Assembly (NCBI GenBank): GCA_963664405.1
Contig: OY761158.1
Span: 2,176,001-2,240,000, forward strand
Direction: 5' to 3'
From: Thermoanaerobaculia bacterium
GTDB lineage: Bacteria; Acidobacteriota; Thermoanaerobaculia; Multivoradales; Multivoraceae
Length of the DNA stretch: 64,000 nt
In this document: in pieces, positions 51,840 to 63,304 of the stretch
Layout: every line of letters begins with the position of its first letter
Numbering within the stretch: the stretch's first letter is position 1
Program-made: the position numbers and the translations under genes
Notes under the pieces: model-generated
What the model was told of the DNA's origin: nothing
The model's database searches: none
Seen by the model: the letters and a program-made list of their open reading frames with translations, nothing else

Positions 51840-53756
51840 CTAGCCAGCGGGAACGAACCAGATGGGAGAAGACCAGGCGCGCTCCTGCAGCGTAGTGTGC
51901 ATATCCGGATTGGGCTCGGCGCCGACCCGCACCGCATCCCAGGTCGACCAGCGGCAGGTCGGATTCTCCAGAACCCTGACGTAGTAGAAGGCTCGCTGCC
52001 CGGCATCGAAGCTCGGATCGGTCCACAGCGCCTCGAGCTCGGCAGCGCCGAGACCCTCGCTGATACTGCAATCGGAGATATCAACGCTGGCGCCGTTGTC
52101 GGGGCAGCGATGGGCGACGGGATCAGGTGCGCCACCGTCGGAGCAAGCGACGTCGAAGACCTGCTCCCGCGCTTTGCCGTCGTCGCCGACCCAGCCCTTG
52201 ATCACCTGGAGGCGCTGCAGCGCCGCGCTATTCGGACTACGGGTCACCGCGGCGAAGAAGCGGGGCGCCCGCTCGCCTTGCGCGGAGAGATCGGCACCCA
52301 TCGGAACGCCCTCGGCATAGGCCTTGGCGATCCGGTTGCGGTCTTCGAGCAGATCGTCGCCATAGTCATAGCCGGCGAAGAAGCGGACGCGCATCCGAGG
52401 TCCGGTGGTAGCGAAGGTCTCCTTGCGCCGGAAGGCTTCGTAGAGAGCATCGCGCGTATTCTCCTCGGCCCACACGCCGACCAGGGCGGCGGCGCTGAAG
52501 AGGTTGCAACCGAGACAGCTCTCGTGCGCGTAGCGCTGACCGTCGGCGTCCCCGGCACCGTCGACCTCGTCGAGTGGCACAGATCCGCGGCCCTGGGGCG
52601 TTGCATCGATGATGCCGACGCTCGAGTGGTAATTCGACTCTTCGACTGCCGTGGTGCCGTTGTGGGTGTCGGTGGAGCCGATGAGCCCGAAGTGAAAAGG
52701 ATTGAATCCCCGCGCCTCCTCCATCTCGATGCCGTCCAGCAAGGCGCCACGCACGTAGCTGTCGACAGGATCGCTGGCAACCAGAGTGCCGATACGGTAG
52801 GGATAGATCTCGAAATCCGCCCACTCGTCGTTGGGTGACAGCAAGGGATGGGTGTCAGAGGTCCCCTTGTGCTGAGTGATTTCCACCAGCGGCTCGTTAC
52901 GCATTCGAGTCTCGGCGTAGGCCGCGTCGAGGGGCTTGCCGTCAAAGGTCTCGAGCTTGAACATCTGTCCGTTCGAACCGTTGGAGTTGTGAGGAATGGC
53001 CAGCGCCTCTACGCCCTCGTCTCGAAGGCCATCCATCCACGCCCATAGGTCCTCCGGATTCGGGGAGTCGAGGCGGCTGAAGGGGAGATCGGGCGCCTCG
53101 CTGCCGCGAAAGATCACGTTGCGGTGGAGGTTCTGGCCCTCTGGGCTGGTGGTGTACTCGTAGGCGATAAAGGTCGTGAACTTACCAGGCTCGTTGTGCC
53201 GCTCGGCGGCCGCAACATTCTCCTTCCAGGCCGAGCGCACGACGTCCAGGTCGAGGATACCGACGTGGCCTTCTTCACTCATGTACGGCCGGATACCCTG
53301 AAACGCCGCCAGCTTCTCGGCGGCAGTCTCGGCAGTGACGAAGGACTCGGCGATATCGAGCTTCGACACCTCGGTCGTCGGGTCCGCCATAGCCGGCAGC
53401 ATGCCGAGGAAAACGGCGTGATCGGTCACGGCGTAGAAGTCGAGCGGCCCGTCTCCTAGCCGCACTTCGAAGCCCAGAGGATGGACCAGCGCCGCCCCCT
53501 TGGCGTAGCGGTAGGCGTCGTCGGGTGTCGCCGTCGTGCCGATGATGAAAGCGTCGAAAGAGTTGCGGGTATGAATGTGAAGATCGCCGAAGTAGGCATT
53601 GCGAAGAGGGTTGGGCGGTGAGGGAGCTGAGGTTTCCGATACGGCTTGCCCTCCCTCGAGTTCGGTCGACTGGGCTCCGGGGTCGCCGGGGGAACAAGCG
53701 ACGCCAATCGCCAGAGCGACAAGCATCATGTGTGCAGGACCGAAACGGACGAGCAT
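51840..53756 (-). CDS. DUF3604 domain lipoprotein (PHP-fold metallohydrolase-like)
   Basis: GVAC lipobox, FGDLHIHT, TDH, PHNSN, STDTHN, QERAWSSPIW; GAGGAGG RBS before ATG 53756. Confidence 0.9.
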   Translation of the reverse strand: MLVRFGPAHMMLVALAIGVACSPGDPGAQSTELEGGQAVSETSAPSPPNPLRNAYFGDLHIHTRNSFDAFIIGTTATPDDAYRYAKGAALVHPLGFEVRLGDGPLDFYAVTDHAVFLGMLPAMADPTTEVSKLDIAESFVTAETAAEKLAAFQGIRPYMSEEGHVGILDLDVVRSAWKENVAAAERHNEPGKFTTFIAYEYTTSPEGQNLHRNVIFRGSEAPDLPFSRLDSPNPEDLWAWMDGLRDEGVEALAIPHNSNGSNGQMFKLETFDGKPLDAAYAETRMRNEPLVEITQHKGTSDTHPLLSPNDEWADFEIYPYRIGTLVASDPVDSYVRGALLDGIEMEEARGFNPFHFGLIGSTDTHNGTTAVEESNYHSSVGIIDATPQGRGSVPLDEVDGAGDADGQRYAHESCLGCNLFSAAALVGVWAEENTRDALYEAFRRKETFATTGPRMRVRFFAGYDYGDDLLEDRNRIAKAYAEGVPMGADLSAQGERAPRFFAAVTRSPNSAALQRLQVIKGWVGDDGKAREQVFDVACSDGGAPDPVAHRCPDNGASVDISDCSISEGLGAAELEALWTDPSFDAGQRAFYYVRVLENPTCRWSTWDAVRVGAEPNPDMHTTLQERAWSSPIWFVPAG

Positions 53757-53894
53757 GGTCGATCTCCTCCTCGAAACAGCATACCGGTGGCTGAGATCGA
53801 AGGCTATCTCACAGCGAACGGCGGAAGCAGAGACGATAGCGAGCAGGAGTAGAGCAGAGAGGCTCCCATTCACGAAAGCCATGGCGCTGGCCCT

Positions 53895-56496: not shown

Positions 56497-57390
56497 TCAG
56501 AACTTTCCGCTTGGCGCCAAGCGGCCAAGGAGCTCGAGATCGGGACCACGCTGGCCGGCCTGAAGAGCCTGGACACAGACGTGGTCCGCGCCGGCCGCAT
56601 AGTGGGCGTCGATCCGGTCGTGGATCGCGCTTTCGTCACCCCAGGCAACCAGCGCATCCACGAGGTGGTCGCTCTTGGCGTCCATCTCTTCGGTGGTGAA
56701 GCCGAGGCGCTCGAGATTGTTGCGATAGCCCGGTGCGGTGAGGTACGAGGAGATCGCCTTGCGTCCCACTTCGCGAGCCACGGCGGCATCCGACTCCAGT
56801 AGAACCATCTGCTCGGTGCACAGCCAGGGCCCTTCCCCCAGAATGCCGCGCGCAAGAGCCGTGTGCTCGGGCGGCACGAGAAAGGGGATCGCTCCACGCG
56901 TACGCTTCGCCGCTAGGCCGAGCATGAGGGGGCCCAGCGAGCCGAGAACGATCGGAGCGTCGTGCTCCGGCTCGGCGCCGCGGTAGAGAGCCTTCTCCAT
57001 CGCTTCCAGATAGCCGCGCATCGCCGGCAGCGGCTTTTTGTACTCGTGTCCGCGAACGCCTGAGACGAGAACCGGACTCGACACTCCTAGCCCGAGGATG
57101 AAACGTCCTGGCGCCGCAAGGGCCATCGTCTTCGCCCCCGAGTTCATAGTCAGCGCGTCACGAGCGTAAATGTTGGCAATGCCTGTCGCCAAGATCAGAC
57201 GCTCGGTGCGAGCGGCGAGATATCCCAGCTGAACGAAGGGGTCGCCGCCCACTGCCTCGGGCAGCCACAGGGTGCTGTAGCCACCCTTCTCGATACGGCC
57301 CGCCAGAGTCGCGAGGTCTTCCGGGGACAGCGTTCCCCCACCGAGAAAGACGCCAAGGCGGCCGGGATGCTCTGGTGCTGTACTCATCAT
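56497..57390 (-). CDS. LLM-class (probable F420-dependent, MSMEG_4141-like) oxidoreductase
   Basis: LWLPE, ATGIANIYARD, GRFILGLGVS, HYAAGADHVCVQ. Confidence 0.88.
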   Translation of the reverse strand: MMSTAPEHPGRLGVFLGGGTLSPEDLATLAGRIEKGGYSTLWLPEAVGGDPFVQLGYLAARTERLILATGIANIYARDALTMNSGAKTMALAAPGRFILGLGVSSPVLVSGVRGHEYKKPLPAMRGYLEAMEKALYRGAEPEHDAPIVLGSLGPLMLGLAAKRTRGAIPFLVPPEHTALARGILGEGPWLCTEQMVLLESDAAVAREVGRKAISSYLTAPGYRNNLERLGFTTEEMDAKSDHLVDALVAWGDESAIHDRIDAHYAAGADHVCVQALQAGQRGPDLELLGRLAPSGKF

Positions 57391-57541
57391 GTCCTCCCGT
57401 TTCAGCGCAGCAGATCTACCGATGAGGGCCGACTTTACGACGCGAGTACGGCCTTGAACAAGGCCGCTTCGACGAGCCTCAGCGGGCCCCAAGCGTGGCC
57501 GTCGTAGAATGGTCGCACTCGCGCGGGCAACCGCGACCGAA

Positions 57542-58624
57542 ATGCCAAATACCTCTCCTATTCCCGAAAACATGATCCAAGAGATGCCGGACGACGGCGT
57601 CATCGAGGCGATCGAGAGCTGCTTCGACGCCGGCTGGACCGACGGTCTGCCTGTCGTACCGCCCTCGAGGCCGGCTGTCGAGGCGATGCTCGCGGCGGGC
57701 CCATGGAAGGCGGACGAGATTCTGCTCGTCGAGCCGGTCCGCGACCGCCAGGTCTCGGCACTCAAGATCGCAGCGAACGCGGTCATGGCGGGCTGTCGCC
57801 CCGAATATTTCCCTGTCGTCGGCGCCGTTTTCCAGGCGATGAGCGACCCCAGATTCAACTTGCATATGCCCGCCACTTCGACCGGGGGGGCCGCCATCGT
57901 CACCGTGGTCAACGGCCCGATCCGCGATCGACTCGCCATTCACTACAAAGAGAATCTTCTCGGCCCCGGCTTTCGTGCCAATGCCACGATCGGTCGCTGC
58001 GTTCGGCTCGTCCTCCGCAACTGCCTCAGCGTCATCCCCGGCACCCTCGACAAGTCCACTCAGGGCTGGCCCGGCAAATACTCCTGCTGTTTCGGCGAGG
58101 ACGAGAGCGCGAGCCCCTGGGAGCCCTTCCACGTCGCCAACGGCTTTGAGGCGGAACAGTCGACGGTCACCATCTTCGCGGGTGAGGGCTGTCACAACCT
58201 CCTCAACCACGGCTCGGCGGACGCCGAGGGCCTACTGATGACTTTCGCCGACAGCATGGCTGCGGCGGGCTCCTTCAGCCCCGGGCCTTCGCTCATCGTG
58301 GTCGCTCCGGAGCATGCCAAGAAGCTCGAGGACTGGGATCGCACGCAAGTTCAGGAGTTTCTCTACGAAAACGCCTGTAGAACCCTCGCCGACTTGAAGA
58401 GGCTGGGCAAGTGCGAGGCCGACGACGGAGCCGCCACCTACTGGGTGCGCTCCGGCCTGACGCCCCTCCCCGGAGATGAAGAAAAGATCATTCACCGTGG
58501 CCAGTCGCCCGAAGACATCTACCTCTTCGTCGGTGGTGGCGACGCGGGCGGTCATTCCGCCTTCTTCCCCAGCTGGAGTCGAGGCCCCAGCGTGCCTGCC
58601 ATCACCTACCCCATTCCCGGCTGA
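57542..58624 (+). CDS. Conserved partner protein of UGSC (seleno)proteins
   Basis: GWTDGLPVVPP, KIAANAVMAGC.PEYFPVV, GFRANATIGR, ESASPWEPFHV motifs. Confidence 0.85.
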   Translation: MPNTSPIPENMIQEMPDDGVIEAIESCFDAGWTDGLPVVPPSRPAVEAMLAAGPWKADEILLVEPVRDRQVSALKIAANAVMAGCRPEYFPVVGAVFQAMSDPRFNLHMPATSTGGAAIVTVVNGPIRDRLAIHYKENLLGPGFRANATIGRCVRLVLRNCLSVIPGTLDKSTQGWPGKYSCCFGEDESASPWEPFHVANGFEAEQSTVTIFAGEGCHNLLNHGSADAEGLLMTFADSMAAAGSFSPGPSLIVVAPEHAKKLEDWDRTQVQEFLYENACRTLADLKRLGKCEADDGAATYWVRSGLTPLPGDEEKIIHRGQSPEDIYLFVGGGDAGGHSAFFPSWSRGPSVPAITYPIPG

Positions 58625-58655
58625 TTGCTCTTCGTTGAGCCCAAGGAGTCCGAAC

Positions 58656-59498
58656 ATGCCCCTTCAACTCGTCGACCCCACCATCTCGACCTCCGATCAT
58701 GTCGTTCCATGTGCGACACGACTTCAGAGCCTCGACGGCGTTGTGATCGGGCTGCTCAATAACGGCAAGACCCATGGCCAGCAGATCCTCGCTCGTATCG
58801 CCGAGAACCTGGGGCGCAAGTACAAAATCGCCGGCACCCTACCGCTGCGCAAGAGCACGGTGAGCATGCCGCTTCCGGAAGACGAAATGGATTCTTTTGC
58901 AGAGGAGTGCGGTGCCGTCCTCGCCGCCGTCGGCGACTGAGGGTCTTGCTCGTCGGGCAGTTTGCTCGACGCAATCCTCTCCGAGAAGCGCTCGATTCCG
59001 GCCGCCGCGATCCTCACCCGGCCCTTCATACCCACGGCTCTGGCTCTTTCTTCGATCCAGAATATGCCGGGCTACCCCTTCGTCGTGCTGCCCCACCCGG
59101 TCACCAGCCTCACCGCCGAAGAAGCCCTGGCAAGGGCCGATGCGGCGACTCCCTACATCGAGGCGCTGCTAGTCGAAGGTGTGGCACGACCGGAAAACGA
59201 CGAGATCAGAATCGAGGGTGCCGCAGAGACTTCTTCGGCATCGGACCTCGCCAAGCTACGCGAGCTCACCGAGGAGCTAGCCGAGCCGCTTCGCGCCGAC
59301 GGTGCCGATCTGAGCGCCCGTCTGAGCGCCCCCGCCGAGCTGACCTTTGCCCTCCGCACCAGCGGTGCCACCTGCGAAGAGTGCGTAATGCCGGGAGCGC
59401 ATCTGCTCGAGATCTATCGCAACCGCACACGCCACGTATTCGGCGACTCGTGGACAGTTCGTCTGGAAGACCCTCGCGAAGAGCAGGTGCTGCGCTAA
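58656..59498 (+). CDS. UGSC-family selenoprotein (Sec at TGA 58938-58940) fused to a NifU-C-like CxxC domain
   Basis: AAGGAG RBS and ATG 58656; LLNNGK..AVGD-U-GSCSS..VVLPHPV, then EPLRADGAD..CEECVMP; in-frame across the TGA with a SECIS-like hairpin. Confidence 0.88.
58947..58973 (+). promoter_or_regulatory. Bacterial SECIS-like hairpin
   Basis: TGC-tc-GTCGGGCA-GTT-TGCTCGAC-GCA (8-bp upper stem with one G-U pair); loop G follows a 19-nt spacer after the UGA. Confidence 0.78.
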
Positions 59499-59592
59499 AT
59501 CAACGGCCCGGGAGCTCGAATCCCGCTCCCGGCGAAGTTGACACACCGTTGCAAACTTCGTTCTAGGCTGTTCCGATCGAGGAGGAAACAAA

Positions 59593-60164
59593 GTGAAAGC
59601 CGCCCCCTACATCACGAGGTGTGCCACCGCAGGCGCCATGCTCGGGCTACTGGCTCTCCCCACCGCTGCCGGCGCCTTGCCGCCGTCCGAGGCCGACGCG
59701 TCCGACGCCTGTGTGCCGGGCGGCACAACCACCTCCATGCCGGAGACCGCGTCGGAGTACGCTCGCATGTGCGGCGAGCATGTCGGAGTGCCACCGACGG
59801 TCAACTGCGGCGACGGGGTGCGAGTACCGATCCGTGTCGACGGTGTAGAGGTGTTCGAGAGCCCGGGCTACCGCAAGTGTGACAACCCCGACTTCAAGGG
59901 CAATTGCAACGTCGGCTCGAAGATCGGAAGGGTTCAGGGGACCGCCGCCGACGGCACCCCTCTCCCAGACGTCGTGTGGGCCTACCTCTGCCGGTCGGCG
60001 GGCCAGGAGCTCTTCGAGCGCGGCATCGCATCGGTCCAGATGATCGGGCATAACAAGACCACGGGAGCCAGCTGCTTCTTCGAATCGCCGGACGCGGTCG
60101 GGAATCTCGTTCAGGCGGAGTACCTCCGATTCGACGAGGACGGCCTTCTCGAAGGCGAGTTGCG
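59593..60164 (+). pseudogene. Secreted Cys-rich protein, 3'-truncated
   Basis: GAGGAGG RBS, GTG start, signal peptide, Cys-rich; joins ABC-ATPase sequence at ~60165. Confidence 0.6.
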
Positions 60165-60569
60165 GTGCGTGCGGCACGCATCGCCGGCGCTCACGACTTC
60201 ATCCTGGAGCTACCCGGGGGGTATGACACGAAACTCGGCACCGTGACGAGTAAAGTGTCGGTAGGCCAGAAGCAGCGCATCGCCATCGCTCGCGGCCTCT
60301 TGCGCGACGCGCGCATCCTGATTCTCGACGAGCCGACCTCGGCCCTCGACCCGGAGACCGAGGAGTACCTGGTCGCCGCTCTCGACGAGGCGGCTAAAGA
60401 CCGTCTCGTCGTCATCATCGCTCACCGCCTGTCGACCATCGCCCACGCCGACAAGATCGTCTTCCTCGAGGACGGCGAGATCCGCGAGCAGGGCAGCCAC
60501 GCCGAGCTCATGGCCAGAACGGACGGCCACTACCGCGAGTTCGTGCGACTTCAGTCCGGGGCGTCGTAG
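60165..60569 (+). pseudogene. C-terminal fragment of an ABC transporter ATPase
   Basis: VSVGQKQRIAIAR signature, ILDEPTSALD, IAHRLST; Walker A and TM domain absent. Confidence 0.8.
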
Positions 60570-60631: not shown

Positions 60632-63304
60632 ATGAGCTCGCGTCCCGCCGTTTCCCGTCCCTTCCTCTTGCTTGCTCTGTTGCTGGGGGTGCCGGCTCTT
60701 TCGATAGGGCAGGGCGACTACATGGCCGCCGACCTCCGCGCCCGAGTAGAGAAGCTGCAGGGTGAAGCTTCCCAGTCTTCGATCTCTCCCCAGGTCCTGC
60801 TCGACCGCCTCGACACTCTGTGGGCGTGGGCCAACGCCTATGCCCTGGATGGGGGACGGCTCGCCATCGACTTCACCATGCAGTACACCCTCGAGCGTCT
60901 GGCGGCGCGCTCCATCTCGCCGAGCCCGAGCGACGCCCTCCTGGTAGATCTGGCAGGAGCCTTCGAGGATTATGTGCGAGGGATCCCCGAGCTGAGCCTG
61001 CCCTCGATGGGCGATCGGGAAGAGCTGTTGCGCTCGGTTGGGAGCTTCGTCGAGACTCAGGTGGCAGAGCTGACCCTGAAAGAGGAGCATCCCAACGCCT
61101 TGGGCACACTGCGGCTGGAGCCAAACCAGGCGCAACGCGCGGGCTCAATGGTGACCTTGGAGCAGACCTGGACGGTGGGTGATGTTCCCATGCGCGTCGG
61201 CGGCGGGATCGCTCTGACCAGCCGAGGCCGCTGGGGCTCACTGCAGACAACCGACGCCACCGCTCAGGGCTACACCAGCGTGCGCAGCTCTCGCGCAGGG
61301 GCGAGACTCGTACCTTCGGAGCCTTGGGCCAAGTGGACGAGCTTCATTACTCGCTTCACTCTGCAGTGGCGTCTGGAGGGAGCCGAGCTCCGCCCCGGCG
61401 ACACCGTCACGGTCACCTACGGCGACCGTTCGGGGGGTGGTCCCGGCTTCCGGGTCCACAGCTACTCCAACGACGCCATGGTTCTTCCCGTCCACCTCGA
61501 CCTCGAGGCAGAGGGGCACGTGCTACAGCCGACCTGGCCCTCCTTTCCGGTGATCGGAGCGGAGGAGACCTGCTACGTCGACCTCGTCGCCCCTTCGGTG
61601 GTCGCCGCCGGTGAGGATCTCGCTCTCACTCTGCGCGGCCAGGATTGCTGGAAGAACGTGAGCAGCGGAGAGAGCCCCGCTTACCGCGTGCTCCTCGGCG
61701 AGACCGCGGTCGCGACTCTGGCGGCAGGCGGCCCCGGGCTTCAGACGATCGAAGAAGTACGCCTCCCCGAGCCGGGCATCTATCGCTTCGAGGTGCGCTC
61801 CGAGGACGGCCGCCTGAGAGGAGGCTCCAACCCGGTGTGGGTCGAGGCGGCGCCTGAGCGCCGCGTTCTATGGGGCGACACCCACGGCCACTCGGGCTTC
61901 GCGGAAGGCCAGGGTCAGCCCGAGGGCTACTACCGCTTCGGCCGCGACGTGGCCAGGCTCGACTTCCTCAGTCTGTCCGAGCACGACATCTTCATGGACG
62001 ACGGCGAGTGGCAGGCGCTGCGCGACGCAGTCGATCGATTCAACGATCCCGGGAGATTCACCGCGCTCCTCGGCTATGAGTGGACGGCGCTGGTTCCTTT
62101 TGGTGGCCACCACAACGTCTTCTTCGCCGACGCTGAAGCCGGGCGCAAGCGGGTGCCGGTGCAGACCGCGCCCGTGCTGAGCGAGCTCTATCAAGGACTA
62201 CGGAAGGCCTACCAGACCGACGACGTTCTGGTCATTCCGCATGCCCACCAAGCGGCAGACTGGCGACAGAGCGACGGCGATCTCGAGCGCCTGATCGAGA
62301 TCGCCTCTGGGCACGGAACCTTCGGCTTCTTCGGCGACAAATACCTGGCAAACGGGTTCAAGGTCGGCTTCATCGGCTCGACCGACAACCACAACGGCCA
62401 CCCCGGTTATACCGGCATCGGCAACCAGCAGCTGGGAGGGCTTGCGGCGGTGCTGGCCCCGGAAAACACGACTCCGGCCCTCTTCAGCGCCATGCGCTCC
62501 CGCTCCACCTACGCCACCACCGGCGAGCGCATTCTGCTCGACGCCGATCTCGACGGCCATCCCATGGGCGCCGTCGTTGAGCCTACGGCCGACCGCACAC
62601 TACGGCTCCGGGTCTCGGGCACCACTCCCATCGACAACGTCGACGTGGTCAAGAACGGCCAGGTGATCTATCGCCGCAGCTTTCTGGGAGAACCTCAGGG
62701 AGTCGGCTCCACGGCACGGGTCCAGCTTCGCTTCGAGTCCTCTAGCGAAGTCTTCAACGGCCACCGCAACCCGCGCGGTCCCCGCCCCTGGAAAGGCAGC
62801 GTCCGCGTCGAGGGAGCCCACCTGGTCGGATTCGACGAGCCATGGTTCGCGCATCCGGATACCTTTCACCTCCGTCGCTCGGCAGCGGATGCCGAGGCTC
62901 TCGACTTTTCTTTCCGAACCAGGGGTCGCTCGAAATCTCTGGTCGTCGATCTCGAAGACACGACAGGCAAGACCGAGCTGGTGATCGACGTCGCGGCGGC
63001 GAGAGAGATCTCTGGATCTCCCGGAGCTGTGGATCGCGAACCGGTAAACCTTCCCTCAATCCGGCTGAGCTTTGATCTCGACGAGCTCGCCAAGGGCCCC
63101 GTCGGCCTGGAGCTCCCGGTCGTACGCAATATCGACCGAATCGAGGCCCGCCTGGTGCCCTCCGGCGCCGCCCTCGACGTCGACATGGAGTTCCGGGACC
63201 AGACCCGGCTCGCCGCCGGCGACGTCTACTATGTACGAGTGCGGCAGCTGGATGGCGGGGTCGCCTGGTCGAGCCCGTGGTTCGTAGGCGCCGCAAATCG
63301 GTAA
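60632..63304 (+). CDS. Large secreted DUF3604/PHP-domain metallohydrolase-like protein
   Basis: WGDTHGHS, SEHD, GYEWT, GHHNV, IPHAH, STDNH, YYVRVRQ..AWSSPW. Confidence 0.85.
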   Translation: MSSRPAVSRPFLLLALLLGVPALSIGQGDYMAADLRARVEKLQGEASQSSISPQVLLDRLDTLWAWANAYALDGGRLAIDFTMQYTLERLAARSISPSPSDALLVDLAGAFEDYVRGIPELSLPSMGDREELLRSVGSFVETQVAELTLKEEHPNALGTLRLEPNQAQRAGSMVTLEQTWTVGDVPMRVGGGIALTSRGRWGSLQTTDATAQGYTSVRSSRAGARLVPSEPWAKWTSFITRFTLQWRLEGAELRPGDTVTVTYGDRSGGGPGFRVHSYSNDAMVLPVHLDLEAEGHVLQPTWPSFPVIGAEETCYVDLVAPSVVAAGEDLALTLRGQDCWKNVSSGESPAYRVLLGETAVATLAAGGPGLQTIEEVRLPEPGIYRFEVRSEDGRLRGGSNPVWVEAAPERRVLWGDTHGHSGFAEGQGQPEGYYRFGRDVARLDFLSLSEHDIFMDDGEWQALRDAVDRFNDPGRFTALLGYEWTALVPFGGHHNVFFADAEAGRKRVPVQTAPVLSELYQGLRKAYQTDDVLVIPHAHQAADWRQSDGDLERLIEIASGHGTFGFFGDKYLANGFKVGFIGSTDNHNGHPGYTGIGNQQLGGLAAVLAPENTTPALFSAMRSRSTYATTGERILLDADLDGHPMGAVVEPTADRTLRLRVSGTTPIDNVDVVKNGQVIYRRSFLGEPQGVGSTARVQLRFESSSEVFNGHRNPRGPRPWKGSVRVEGAHLVGFDEPWFAHPDTFHLRRSAADAEALDFSFRTRGRSKSLVVDLEDTTGKTELVIDVAAAREISGSPGAVDREPVNLPSIRLSFDLDELAKGPVGLELPVVRNIDRIEARLVPSGAALDVDMEFRDQTRLAAGDVYYVRVRQLDGGVAWSSPWFVGAANR

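Follow-up and report, generated by a model that had tools for sequence, protein, structure and literature searches.

A UGSC Selenoprotein With a Divergent Nfu-like Domain and its Partner Gene in a Thermoanaerobaculia Genome: Candidate Subunits of a Selenocysteine-Dependent Reductase

A stretch of 64,000 nucleotides from a Thermoanaerobaculia bacterium of the Acidobacteriota (assembly GCA_963664405.1, contig OY761158.1, positions 2,176,001 to 2,240,000; "the window" in the following, to which coordinates refer unless marked otherwise) contains a two-gene module, which is the subject of this report. The second gene encodes a selenoprotein of the UGSC family, in which a TGA codon is predicted to be read as selenocysteine (Sec, or U) and to which a C-terminal domain resembling the NifU/Nfu proteins is attached. 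The first gene encodes a protein that accompanies UGSC proteins in other genomes as well and is called the partner here. With moderate confidence, we read the pair as a two-subunit, Sec-dependent reductase. Dithiol relays would supply it with electrons, and the Nfu-like domain would be one such relay, built in, or an iron-sulfur (Fe-S) centre. The module is a variant of a family that has been catalogued, and whose function is uncharacterised. The genome is a single contig of 6.78 Mb and is 97% complete. The features of the locus are as follows:

57509 or 57542 to 58624, forward strand: partner gene, encoding 371 amino acids from the ATG at 57509 or 360 amino acids from the ATG at 57542; stop codon TGA at 58622-58624
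58643 to 58648, forward strand: Shine-Dalgarno-like AAGGAG, 7 nucleotides (nt) before the ATG at 58656, read directly from the sequence
58656 to 59498, forward strand: gene for the UGSC-Nfu-like selenoprotein, 280 codons plus TAA at 59496-59498, with TGA translated as U
58668 to 59174, forward strand: UGSC domain, residues 5-173, with the motif U95-G-S-C98 (PF24696, 2e-43)
58938 to 58940, forward strand: in-frame TGA, predicted to encode U95, at a column occupied by Cys in homologues and in a genome with Sec machinery
58952 to 58970, forward strand: hairpin resembling a Sec insertion sequence (SECIS), with an 8-bp stem (58952-58959 paired with 58963-58970) and a GUU loop
59175 to 59243, forward strand: acidic linker rich in Ser and Ala, residues 174-196, gapped and poorly conserved in alignments
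59244 to 59495, forward strand: Nfu/NifU-C-like domain, residues 197-280, with LRADGADL, C240-E-E-C243-V-M-P and a C-terminal DPR
59508 to 59532, forward strand: GC-rich hairpin just 3' of the stop codon (65-nt stretch 59496-59560: minimum free energy -23.1 kcal/mol, z -3.3)
56497 to 57390, reverse strand: F420-type LLM oxidoreductase, divergent neighbour (TIGR03620, 271.5 bits; PF00296, 9.3e-30)

A spacer of 31 nt separates the partner gene from the selenoprotein gene, whose frame reads AAVGD, TGA, GSCSS around the in-frame TGA and provides four Cys or Sec residues in its two motifs, U95, C98, C240 and C243. The hairpin behind the stop codon is a possible transcript end, though it has no T-run; a scan for consensus promoters and terminators gave nothing useful and did not call it.

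Decoding of the In-Frame TGA

The sequence-only reading of this DNA had taken the ATG at 58656 to open one frame of 280 codons that runs through the TGA to 59498, and these coordinates proved exact. It had also proposed that the product is a genuine UGSC selenoprotein, which the analysis supports. A single PF24696 match of 148.9 bits (cut-off 25) extends over residues 5-173, so one domain spans the TGA; the NCBIfam model NF041046 reaches 119.7 bits, slightly less than the 125 bits of its equivalog cut-off (for the Pfam and NCBIfam scans, Sec was replaced by Cys). Full-length homologues have Cys in the column of the TGA (GDCGSC as compared with GD-U-GSC, residues 93-98), and the Cys forms, which are 257-293 amino acids long, align end to end with the 280-codon frame. 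Among 37 loci fetched from two phyla, 34 of the 35 UGSC matches have a stop codon at the U column, and all 34 stops are TGA; the sole exception (L030) is a truncated copy. The four UGSC paralogues of this genome all have TGA at this position, and nearly every UGSC match in our sample of the phylum is listed with one TGA inside.

A genome without the selABCD genes, which the sequence-only reading had named as a possible objection, is not what we find: selA (423 bits), selB (340 bits), selD (362 bits) and a tRNA-Sec (72 bits, anticodon tca) are all present and score above the curated cut-offs. The best selD match (genome coordinates G000:C1:388007-388930, L010) holds one in-frame TGA, so that the SelD of this genome would itself be a Sec-containing protein.

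The SECIS-like hairpin is placed with its stem starting 14 nt after the UGA, the whole stem-loop lying about 14-33 nt after the U of the UGA. Over 32 sequences, 90.2% of the cells are paired and compensatory changes occur at five of the eight pairs; the covariation score of 0.213 compares with 0.093 in shuffled alignments (none of 500 reaches 0.213) and with 0.02-0.10 in controls in which the hairpin was slid along the alignment. The loop has the form G-U-N across the relatives, its G and U being nearly invariant. As a single sequence, the hairpin folds unremarkably (minimum free energy -25 kcal/mol, z -1.8), and no Rfam family was matched between 57000 and 60500, the hairpin included.

Metagenome contigs have their summed depth peaks at 58907-58973 (265 and 894, with a background of 2), where short pieces of other organisms match with three to five differences; the segment holding the UGA and the hairpin is thus conserved at the nucleotide level. 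Contigs from four sequencing runs cover the locus: two are identical to the stretch and may be its source, and two at about 97% identity span the module from partner to tail unbroken. None of the 40 differences listed, from a total of 83 in these contigs, falls at 58938-58940, which does not in itself prove identity at the TGA.

Gene callers split the frame at this codon. Two database entries (P0002 and P0003) start at a TTG after the TGA and two others (P0145 and P0197) end at GD, as they would if the TGA were a true stop and the locus consisted of two small genes or a pseudogene. However, both halves are needed to make up one Pfam domain, the TGA falls on a Cys column across two phyla, a covarying hairpin follows it, and the Sec machinery of the genome is complete. 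We therefore regard a true stop as extremely improbable. Judged by these comparisons of sequence, decoding of the TGA at 58938 as Sec can be taken as settled, short of a labelling experiment.

The UGSC Family, its Partner and the Nfu-like Domain

Since 2007, UGSC selenoproteins have stood in the lists as "function unknown". When 1.84 billion representatives were searched exhaustively, 857 proteins matched at E≤0.001; a UGSC profile run against the PDB gave nothing meaningful. Since the family is already present in Pfam, in NCBIfam and in the work of Zhang and Gladyshev (2007/2008; "UGSC-containing protein"), it is uncharacterised rather than undescribed. The earlier claim of an undescribed system is to be qualified accordingly. 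As far as the searchable text of the literature goes, UGSC is found in catalogue mentions, as a selenoprotein of unknown function (PMC2398784, PMC13188914, PMC9312934, PMC1976440). One of these papers also mentions a "UGSC/Unknown_1" fusion, shown in Figure S1A of its supplement (PMC2398784). This Unknown_1 could correspond either to the partner family or to the Nfu-like domain, and so has a bearing on the priority of what is described below.

The window protein shares the motif column of PF24696 and NF041046, read as Sec. It differs from the rest of the family in an additional C-terminal extension of about 105 residues (the linker and the Nfu-like domain of about 85 residues), in its score below the NF041046 cut-off, and in lacking the third Cys of U-G-S-C-x-x-C. 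This third Cys belongs to the common pattern U-G-S-C-T-[ST]-C-S of most plain modules and is missing also from five Actinomycetota relatives with the UGSC-Nfu architecture, which together with the window protein read U-G-S-C-S-S-[GS]-S.

The view that the 360-amino-acid gene is a regular companion of UGSC was part of the sequence-only reading and holds without exception in the sampled phylum. Of 301 genomes sampled, 29 have UGSC and 30 have the partner, and 29 have both; the thirtieth partner-positive genome has a match of 38 residues at a contig end. The two genes are also close together: 29 of 39 UGSC matches lie less than 1 kb and 34 less than 10 kb from a partner, and the remaining five are second copies in five genomes of genus g2, each of which has two of each gene. 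These distances were counted from match coordinates and with genus g151 (G220, G290, G300) left out, for which only six partner candidates per genome were scored. In the genome studied here there are four UGSC-partner pairs, each with its TGA. The two genes are moreover fused in 10 of 150 UGSC representatives, which are 408-657 amino acids long. Taken together, pairing, adjacency and fusion indicate that the partner gene is obligate for UGSC. The three g151 genomes, of 3-4 Mb, each have at least 11 UGSC matches, most of them in frames of 550-700 amino acids with one TGA, which would make them UGSC-partner fusion selenoproteins; the expansion of the family in this genus is striking.

The family of the partner itself is very large, with thousands of clusters at 90% identity, and of 8000 candidates that were scored, 7996 match at E≤0.001. 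Neither its sequence nor its profile matched anything in Pfam (copy of 2025), NCBIfam (release 20) or the PDB, weak matches pooled over 50 family members were noise only, and two homologues found in the Protein Atlas belong only to unnamed clusters and to clusters of UGSC fusions. In 44 diverse sequences, two Cys residues are nearly invariant, C85 (43 of 44) and C183 (41 of 44; numbering from the ATG at 57542), and D34, T114, N147, R152, D170, K179, E186, E257, H258 and S339 are conserved as well.

The C-terminal tail of the window protein is marked by the motifs L-R-A-D-G-A-D-L and C-x-[ED]-C-[VI]-[ML]-P and by a terminal D-P-R. It is found in 29 of 144 aligned relatives and absent from the other 115, and its CxxC is kept in all 29. 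Among these 29 are 17 short gene calls of 91-190 amino acids without the U motif, most of which start just after the U column, as is expected of a gene caller that stops at the Sec codon, and nine full-length Cys forms, mostly from Actinomycetota. The NifU domain model PF01106 is matched by 10 of the 144 relatives (E≤0.01; best 2e-8) and is annotated, from precomputed data, on three full-length homologues; BLAST connects the window tail to Cys-type forms with a PF01106 match at 1e-5 to 2e-8. When a nine-row profile of the domain was compared with the PDB, the three best chains were all NifU-like (2jnv, 3.1e-4; 2z51, 4.6e-4; 1xhj, 6.7e-3). The CxxC of the tail falls exactly on that of 1xhj and on that of the Nfu of this genome, with an offset of three residues in the alignments to 2z51 and 2jnv. 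We call the tail Nfu-like because its relatives match PF01106 and its profile finds NifU-like PDB chains, and by this transitive homology it is probably a divergent CxxC domain of the NifU/Nfu type. Like the NifU-C/Nfu carriers, the tail spans about 80 residues in which L-x-x-DG-x-D is followed by a CxxC ahead of a helix; in contrast to them, it has a loop before the CxxC that is longer by three residues, the C-x-E/D-C-V/I-M/L-P motif and the conserved DPR end.

Beyond the window, five Actinomycetota loci (L025, L029, L032, L035, L036) have the domain attached C-terminally to UGSC, with the gene order unchanged. In four Ilumatobacteraceae loci (L026, L027, L028, L031), it is attached C-terminally to the partner, each time with a separate Sec-UGSC following, and in three more (L033, L034, L037) it is a small stand-alone gene nearby. 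The scan behind these observations started from a seven-row alignment and finds only relatives with two peptide patterns, so its 14 loci are a biased sample. Within it, the domain is mobile among the parts of the module. The fusion that the sequence-only reading had asked about thus recurs, and a situation in which the two halves are separate genes in all homologues, with neither Cys nor Sec at the U column, was not encountered.

Electron Supply and a Candidate Reductase

The fusions in which the module's proteins take part suggest where its reducing power may come from. Among 120 long relatives of the partner that were listed, 70 carry PF24696, 33 carry PF07992, the domain of thioredoxin reductase (TrxR)-like proteins, and one carries the thioredoxin (Trx)-like PF00578. 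The 33 flavoprotein fusions are pyridine-nucleotide-disulfide oxidoreductases (PF07992, PF00070), several of which are named thioredoxin reductase at their source. A single CxxC (CAVC, CADC, CATC and others) is present in 32 of the 33, about 130 residues past the first GxGxxG, which is where TrxR of low molecular mass has its redox disulfide. The partner precedes the flavoprotein in 30 cases and follows it in three. One further protein (P0191) joins a Cys-type UGSC to a TrxR-like flavoprotein, and another (P0296) has a Trx/AhpC-like CxxC domain ahead of the partner. Fused NAD(P)H-thioredoxin reductase systems are known from proteins of the NTRC and AhpF type, in which a TrxR-like CxxC flavoprotein is likewise joined to a redox client. 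However, the client in the present fusions is the partner family or UGSC instead of Trx or AhpC, and the window module has neither a TrxR fusion nor a TrxR gene nearby.

In the reductase that we propose, the two genes would encode one enzyme. The partner would be the substrate-handling subunit, with its near-invariant C85 and C183 and its invariant polar residues, and UGSC would be the Sec subunit, whose U95-x-x-C98 would cycle between selenol/thiol and selenenylsulfide and thereby reduce something bound on the partner. Reducing power would arrive by thiol-disulfide exchange, from a donor that in other organisms may be hard-wired as a TrxR-like flavoprotein or a Trx-like domain, attached either to the partner or to UGSC. 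At the window locus, the Nfu-like CxxC domain, tethered to UGSC by a flexible linker, would provide a second redox centre, of either the dithiol-relay or the Fe-S kind. What we infer in this scheme is the way in which the electrons flow, the partner's part in catalysis and the function of the Nfu-like domain.

The reductases of the Stickland type offer a comparison. In glycine, sarcosine, betaine and D-proline reductases, the B subunit acts together with a further subunit that binds the substrate, and the electrons of glycine reductase come from the thioredoxin system. We compared an alignment of 144 UGSC rows with one of 25 GrdB-like selenoproteins, whose genes were read through their TGA for this purpose. 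In hhalign, the two are related with a probability of 84.1% (E 7.5e-6, score 49.9, 69 columns); the Sec residues coincide, E-x-x-G-I-P meets its counterpart, and HP is aligned to HP/P-G. In controls, for which the alignment was reversed, its columns were shuffled (20 times) or the unrelated partner alignment was used, E was ≥0.26 and the scores were 9-16; with only four GrdB-like rows the probability was 46% (E 2e-4). The UGSC core thus seems to be distantly related to the core of GrdB/PrdB-type subunits that bears the Sec, with a shared U-x-x-C at a strand-helix junction, then E-x-x-G-I-P and later HP/P-G. The motifs are also alike in detail: bona fide GrdB proteins in two genomes of the phylum read U-G-T-C-S-R-C (L067) and U-A-T-C-S-R-C (L066), and the commonest UGSC form is U-G-S-C-T-S-C. 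In contrast to GrdB/PrdB (PF07355), UGSC is much shorter (about 170 amino acids) and has no N-terminal GRDB region, and its partner has no detectable relation to the pyruvoyl proprotein GrdE. Nothing points to a pyruvoyl group, and no match to PF09338 (GrdE/PrdA) was obtained in the genome.

Proteins related to GrdB do occur in this genome. Four short ones with PF07355 matches (L059-L062; G000:C1:5775757-5776167, forward; 5575401-5575760, reverse; 6356530-6356886, forward; 6329049-6329300, forward) each run into an in-frame TGA (U-P-x-C), after which the frame continues, and are probably further selenoproteins. GRDB matches were counted in 69 of 301 genomes of the phylum, a tally that includes the unpublished genome G049, which contributed no locus, and 25 of 33 fetched loci can be read through in a U-x-x-C. 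The flanks of L060 and L062 contain two more long frames with a TGA in a U-P-Y-C context (DYQ-U-PYC and VVW-U-PYC), which look like candidates for selenoproteins of the Trx/DsbA/peroxiredoxin type.

Several observations weigh against the proposed reductase or parts of it. The link to GrdB comes from a single profile-profile result, at 84%. The GRDB model misses all four UGSC loci in a scan of the genome at E≤10, which found five other places, and it also misses every one of the 144 UGSC members; this model ends just before the Sec residue. A comparison of the partner with three GrdE sequences gave E 0.47 in hhalign. For the Nfu-like domain, no PF01106 match was obtained for the window protein (E≤1 in the protein scan, E≤10 in the whole-genome scan) or for any of ten Sec-type relatives (E≤1), and the tail profile aligns weakly with the genome's own canonical Nfu (E 0.09, probability 0.6%), if with CxxC on CxxC. 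The NifU-like domain of the sequence-only reading is accordingly sustained through family members and PDB chains, but not by a direct match in the window protein. Concerning electron supply, the fusions show a functional link but, read from sequence, not the direction of electron flow, and none of the four modules has a TrxR-like gene in its vicinity, the two that the genome has being far off. Finally, clustering of the neighbours over 37 loci revealed no conserved third gene, so the substrate is a guess.

The Nfu-like domain could alternatively be a true Fe-S carrier, with a [2Fe-2S] or [4Fe-4S] cluster on C240/C243, which would make the module a metallo-enzyme rather than a pure dithiol machine. 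Such a cluster might pass on electrons, or it might be delivered to a site formed by U95/C98 and by C85/C183 of the partner. Homology to NifU/Nfu speaks for this, as does the alignment of the CxxC with the one that binds the cluster in 1xhj and in the Nfu of this genome, and between them the partner and UGSC contribute four conserved Cys/Sec residues. Sec can also be a metal ligand or sit in homologues of Fe-S scaffolds. However, the setting of the motif, C-x-[ED]-C-[VI]-[ML]-P, is not the canonical G-x-C-x-x-C-P, dithiol exchangers (TrxR, Trx-like) take the place of the domain in other architectures, and 28 of the 29 UGSC-positive genomes in the phylum sample do without it. An Fe-S carrier is therefore a tentative alternative, to which we give the smaller part of our confidence.

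Gene Neighbourhood, Origin and Wider Meaning

The neighbours of the module differ from one subfamily to another. Those that recur among the 37 loci are the following:

Enoyl-CoA hydratase or FadB-like: nine loci in eight genomes
Acyl-CoA synthetase: five loci
Pyrroloquinoline quinone (PQQ) dehydrogenase: five loci
LarA-like (lactate-racemase family): five loci; directly after UGSC in L042, L047, L054 and L055

In the last four loci, which represent one partner subfamily, partner, UGSC and LarA-like gene follow each other in an operon-like order. These neighbourhoods hint at organic-acid or acyl-CoA metabolism, and the module family looks like a set of paralogues that would act on different substrates in organic-acid metabolism.

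They also bear on a more general explanation, by which the pair would be a thiol-disulfide or antioxidant system (for example, one that reduces peroxides or disulfides and in which UGSC is a Trx-like carrier) and not a substrate-specific catabolic reductase. The UxxC motif would suit such a system, for which there are also the fusions to TrxR and to Trx/peroxiredoxin-like domains and an earlier suggestion of a Trx-like fold for UGSC (PMC2398784). However, four paralogous pairs in this genome and at least 11 copies in genus g151, together with the subfamily-specific surroundings (LarA-like, enoyl-CoA hydratase, acyl-CoA synthetase), look like substrate diversification, and the profile comparison connects UGSC to GrdB-like proteins. 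A general antioxidant role thus appears unlikely, and the substrate-specific reductase remains our preferred reading.

The sequence-only reading had further supposed that the module recycles or feeds the neighbouring F420-dependent LLM oxidoreductase. The TIGR03620 score of this neighbour is well above the cut-off of 219.8, the gene starts about 120-150 nt away in the divergent direction, and a second UGSC-partner pair of this genome also stands beside an LLM gene. Genes for F420 biosynthesis are present, too: there is a CofD (299.5 bits; G000:C1:826326-827237) and a CofH-type match of 507 bits in a fused CofG/CofH-type frame of 884 amino acids (5950816-5953092), from which this diderm genome appears able to make F420. 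However, only five of the 37 module loci have an LLM homologue within about 9 kb; it is adjacent only in two loci, both of this same genome, and 4.4 kb off in the other three. No module is found close to the LLM paralogue that is most similar (55% identity, near 4.46 Mb). The proposed link was not upheld by this survey; service to the LLM enzyme is very unlikely, and the gene is, by its distribution, best described as context and not as a conserved part of the module.

How the Nfu-bearing module came to be in this genome is suggested by a tree of 35 partner sequences (L032 was left out for its split matches, L030 and L038 for having no partner). The window partner groups with four Actinomycetota partners of UGSC-Nfu modules, with a support of 100 in the Shimodaira-Hasegawa-like approximate likelihood ratio test (SH-aLRT). 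This group shares a starred branch (SH-aLRT 95, 10 rows) with a weaker one (82) made up of the Ilumatobacteraceae partner-Nfu fusions and the plain module L052, whose branch is long and whose place is unsure. The other three paralogues of the genome are found among plain modules, two (L022, L023) with modules of their own phylum and one (L024) on a long, unplaced branch. The genome encodes BamA (445 bits), so it is that of a diderm and not of an actinomycete, and it is the only one among the 29 UGSC-positive genomes of the phylum sample to have the Nfu-like domain. Transfer of the Nfu-bearing module between phyla, in one direction or the other, is likely on these grounds. The GC content is flat across the module, so composition shows no sign of a recent transfer.

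Two observations concern the surroundings of the module. Right behind it, at 59593-60246, lies an open reading frame (ORF) of 217 amino acids with a signal-peptide-like start, which is overlapped by an ORF of 134 amino acids (60165-60569) that covers an ABC-transporter ATPase in its C-terminal third alone (PF00005 positions 97-137); this pair looks like a gene remnant or the scar of a rearrangement. The region is flanked by DUF3604 paralogues at 51840-53882 (reverse strand) and 60632-63304 (forward strand), one with a full match of 743 bits and the other a divergent one of 87 bits.

What this analysis adds to the catalogued family is an obligate partner, a network of fusions to TrxR, Trx-like and Nfu-like domains, a covarying SECIS and the link to GrdB/PrdB. 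A motif is thereby turned into a testable system, and the fusion network points to electron input of the thioredoxin-reductase type. Should our main reading of the pair be right, it would mean a new class of Sec-dependent reductases, with clear constructs to express. A bolder proposition, which we consider possible but rather doubtful, is that UGSC and its partner form a very widespread, unrecognised class of Sec-dependent reductases. They would be remote, miniaturised cousins of the B components of Stickland-type glycine and proline reductases, spread through aerobic marine and soil bacteria as many substrate-specific paralogues with interchangeable electron-input modules (TrxR, Trx-like, Nfu-like), and in the window protein the Fe-S cluster or redox disulfide of the Nfu-like domain would talk directly to the Sec centre.

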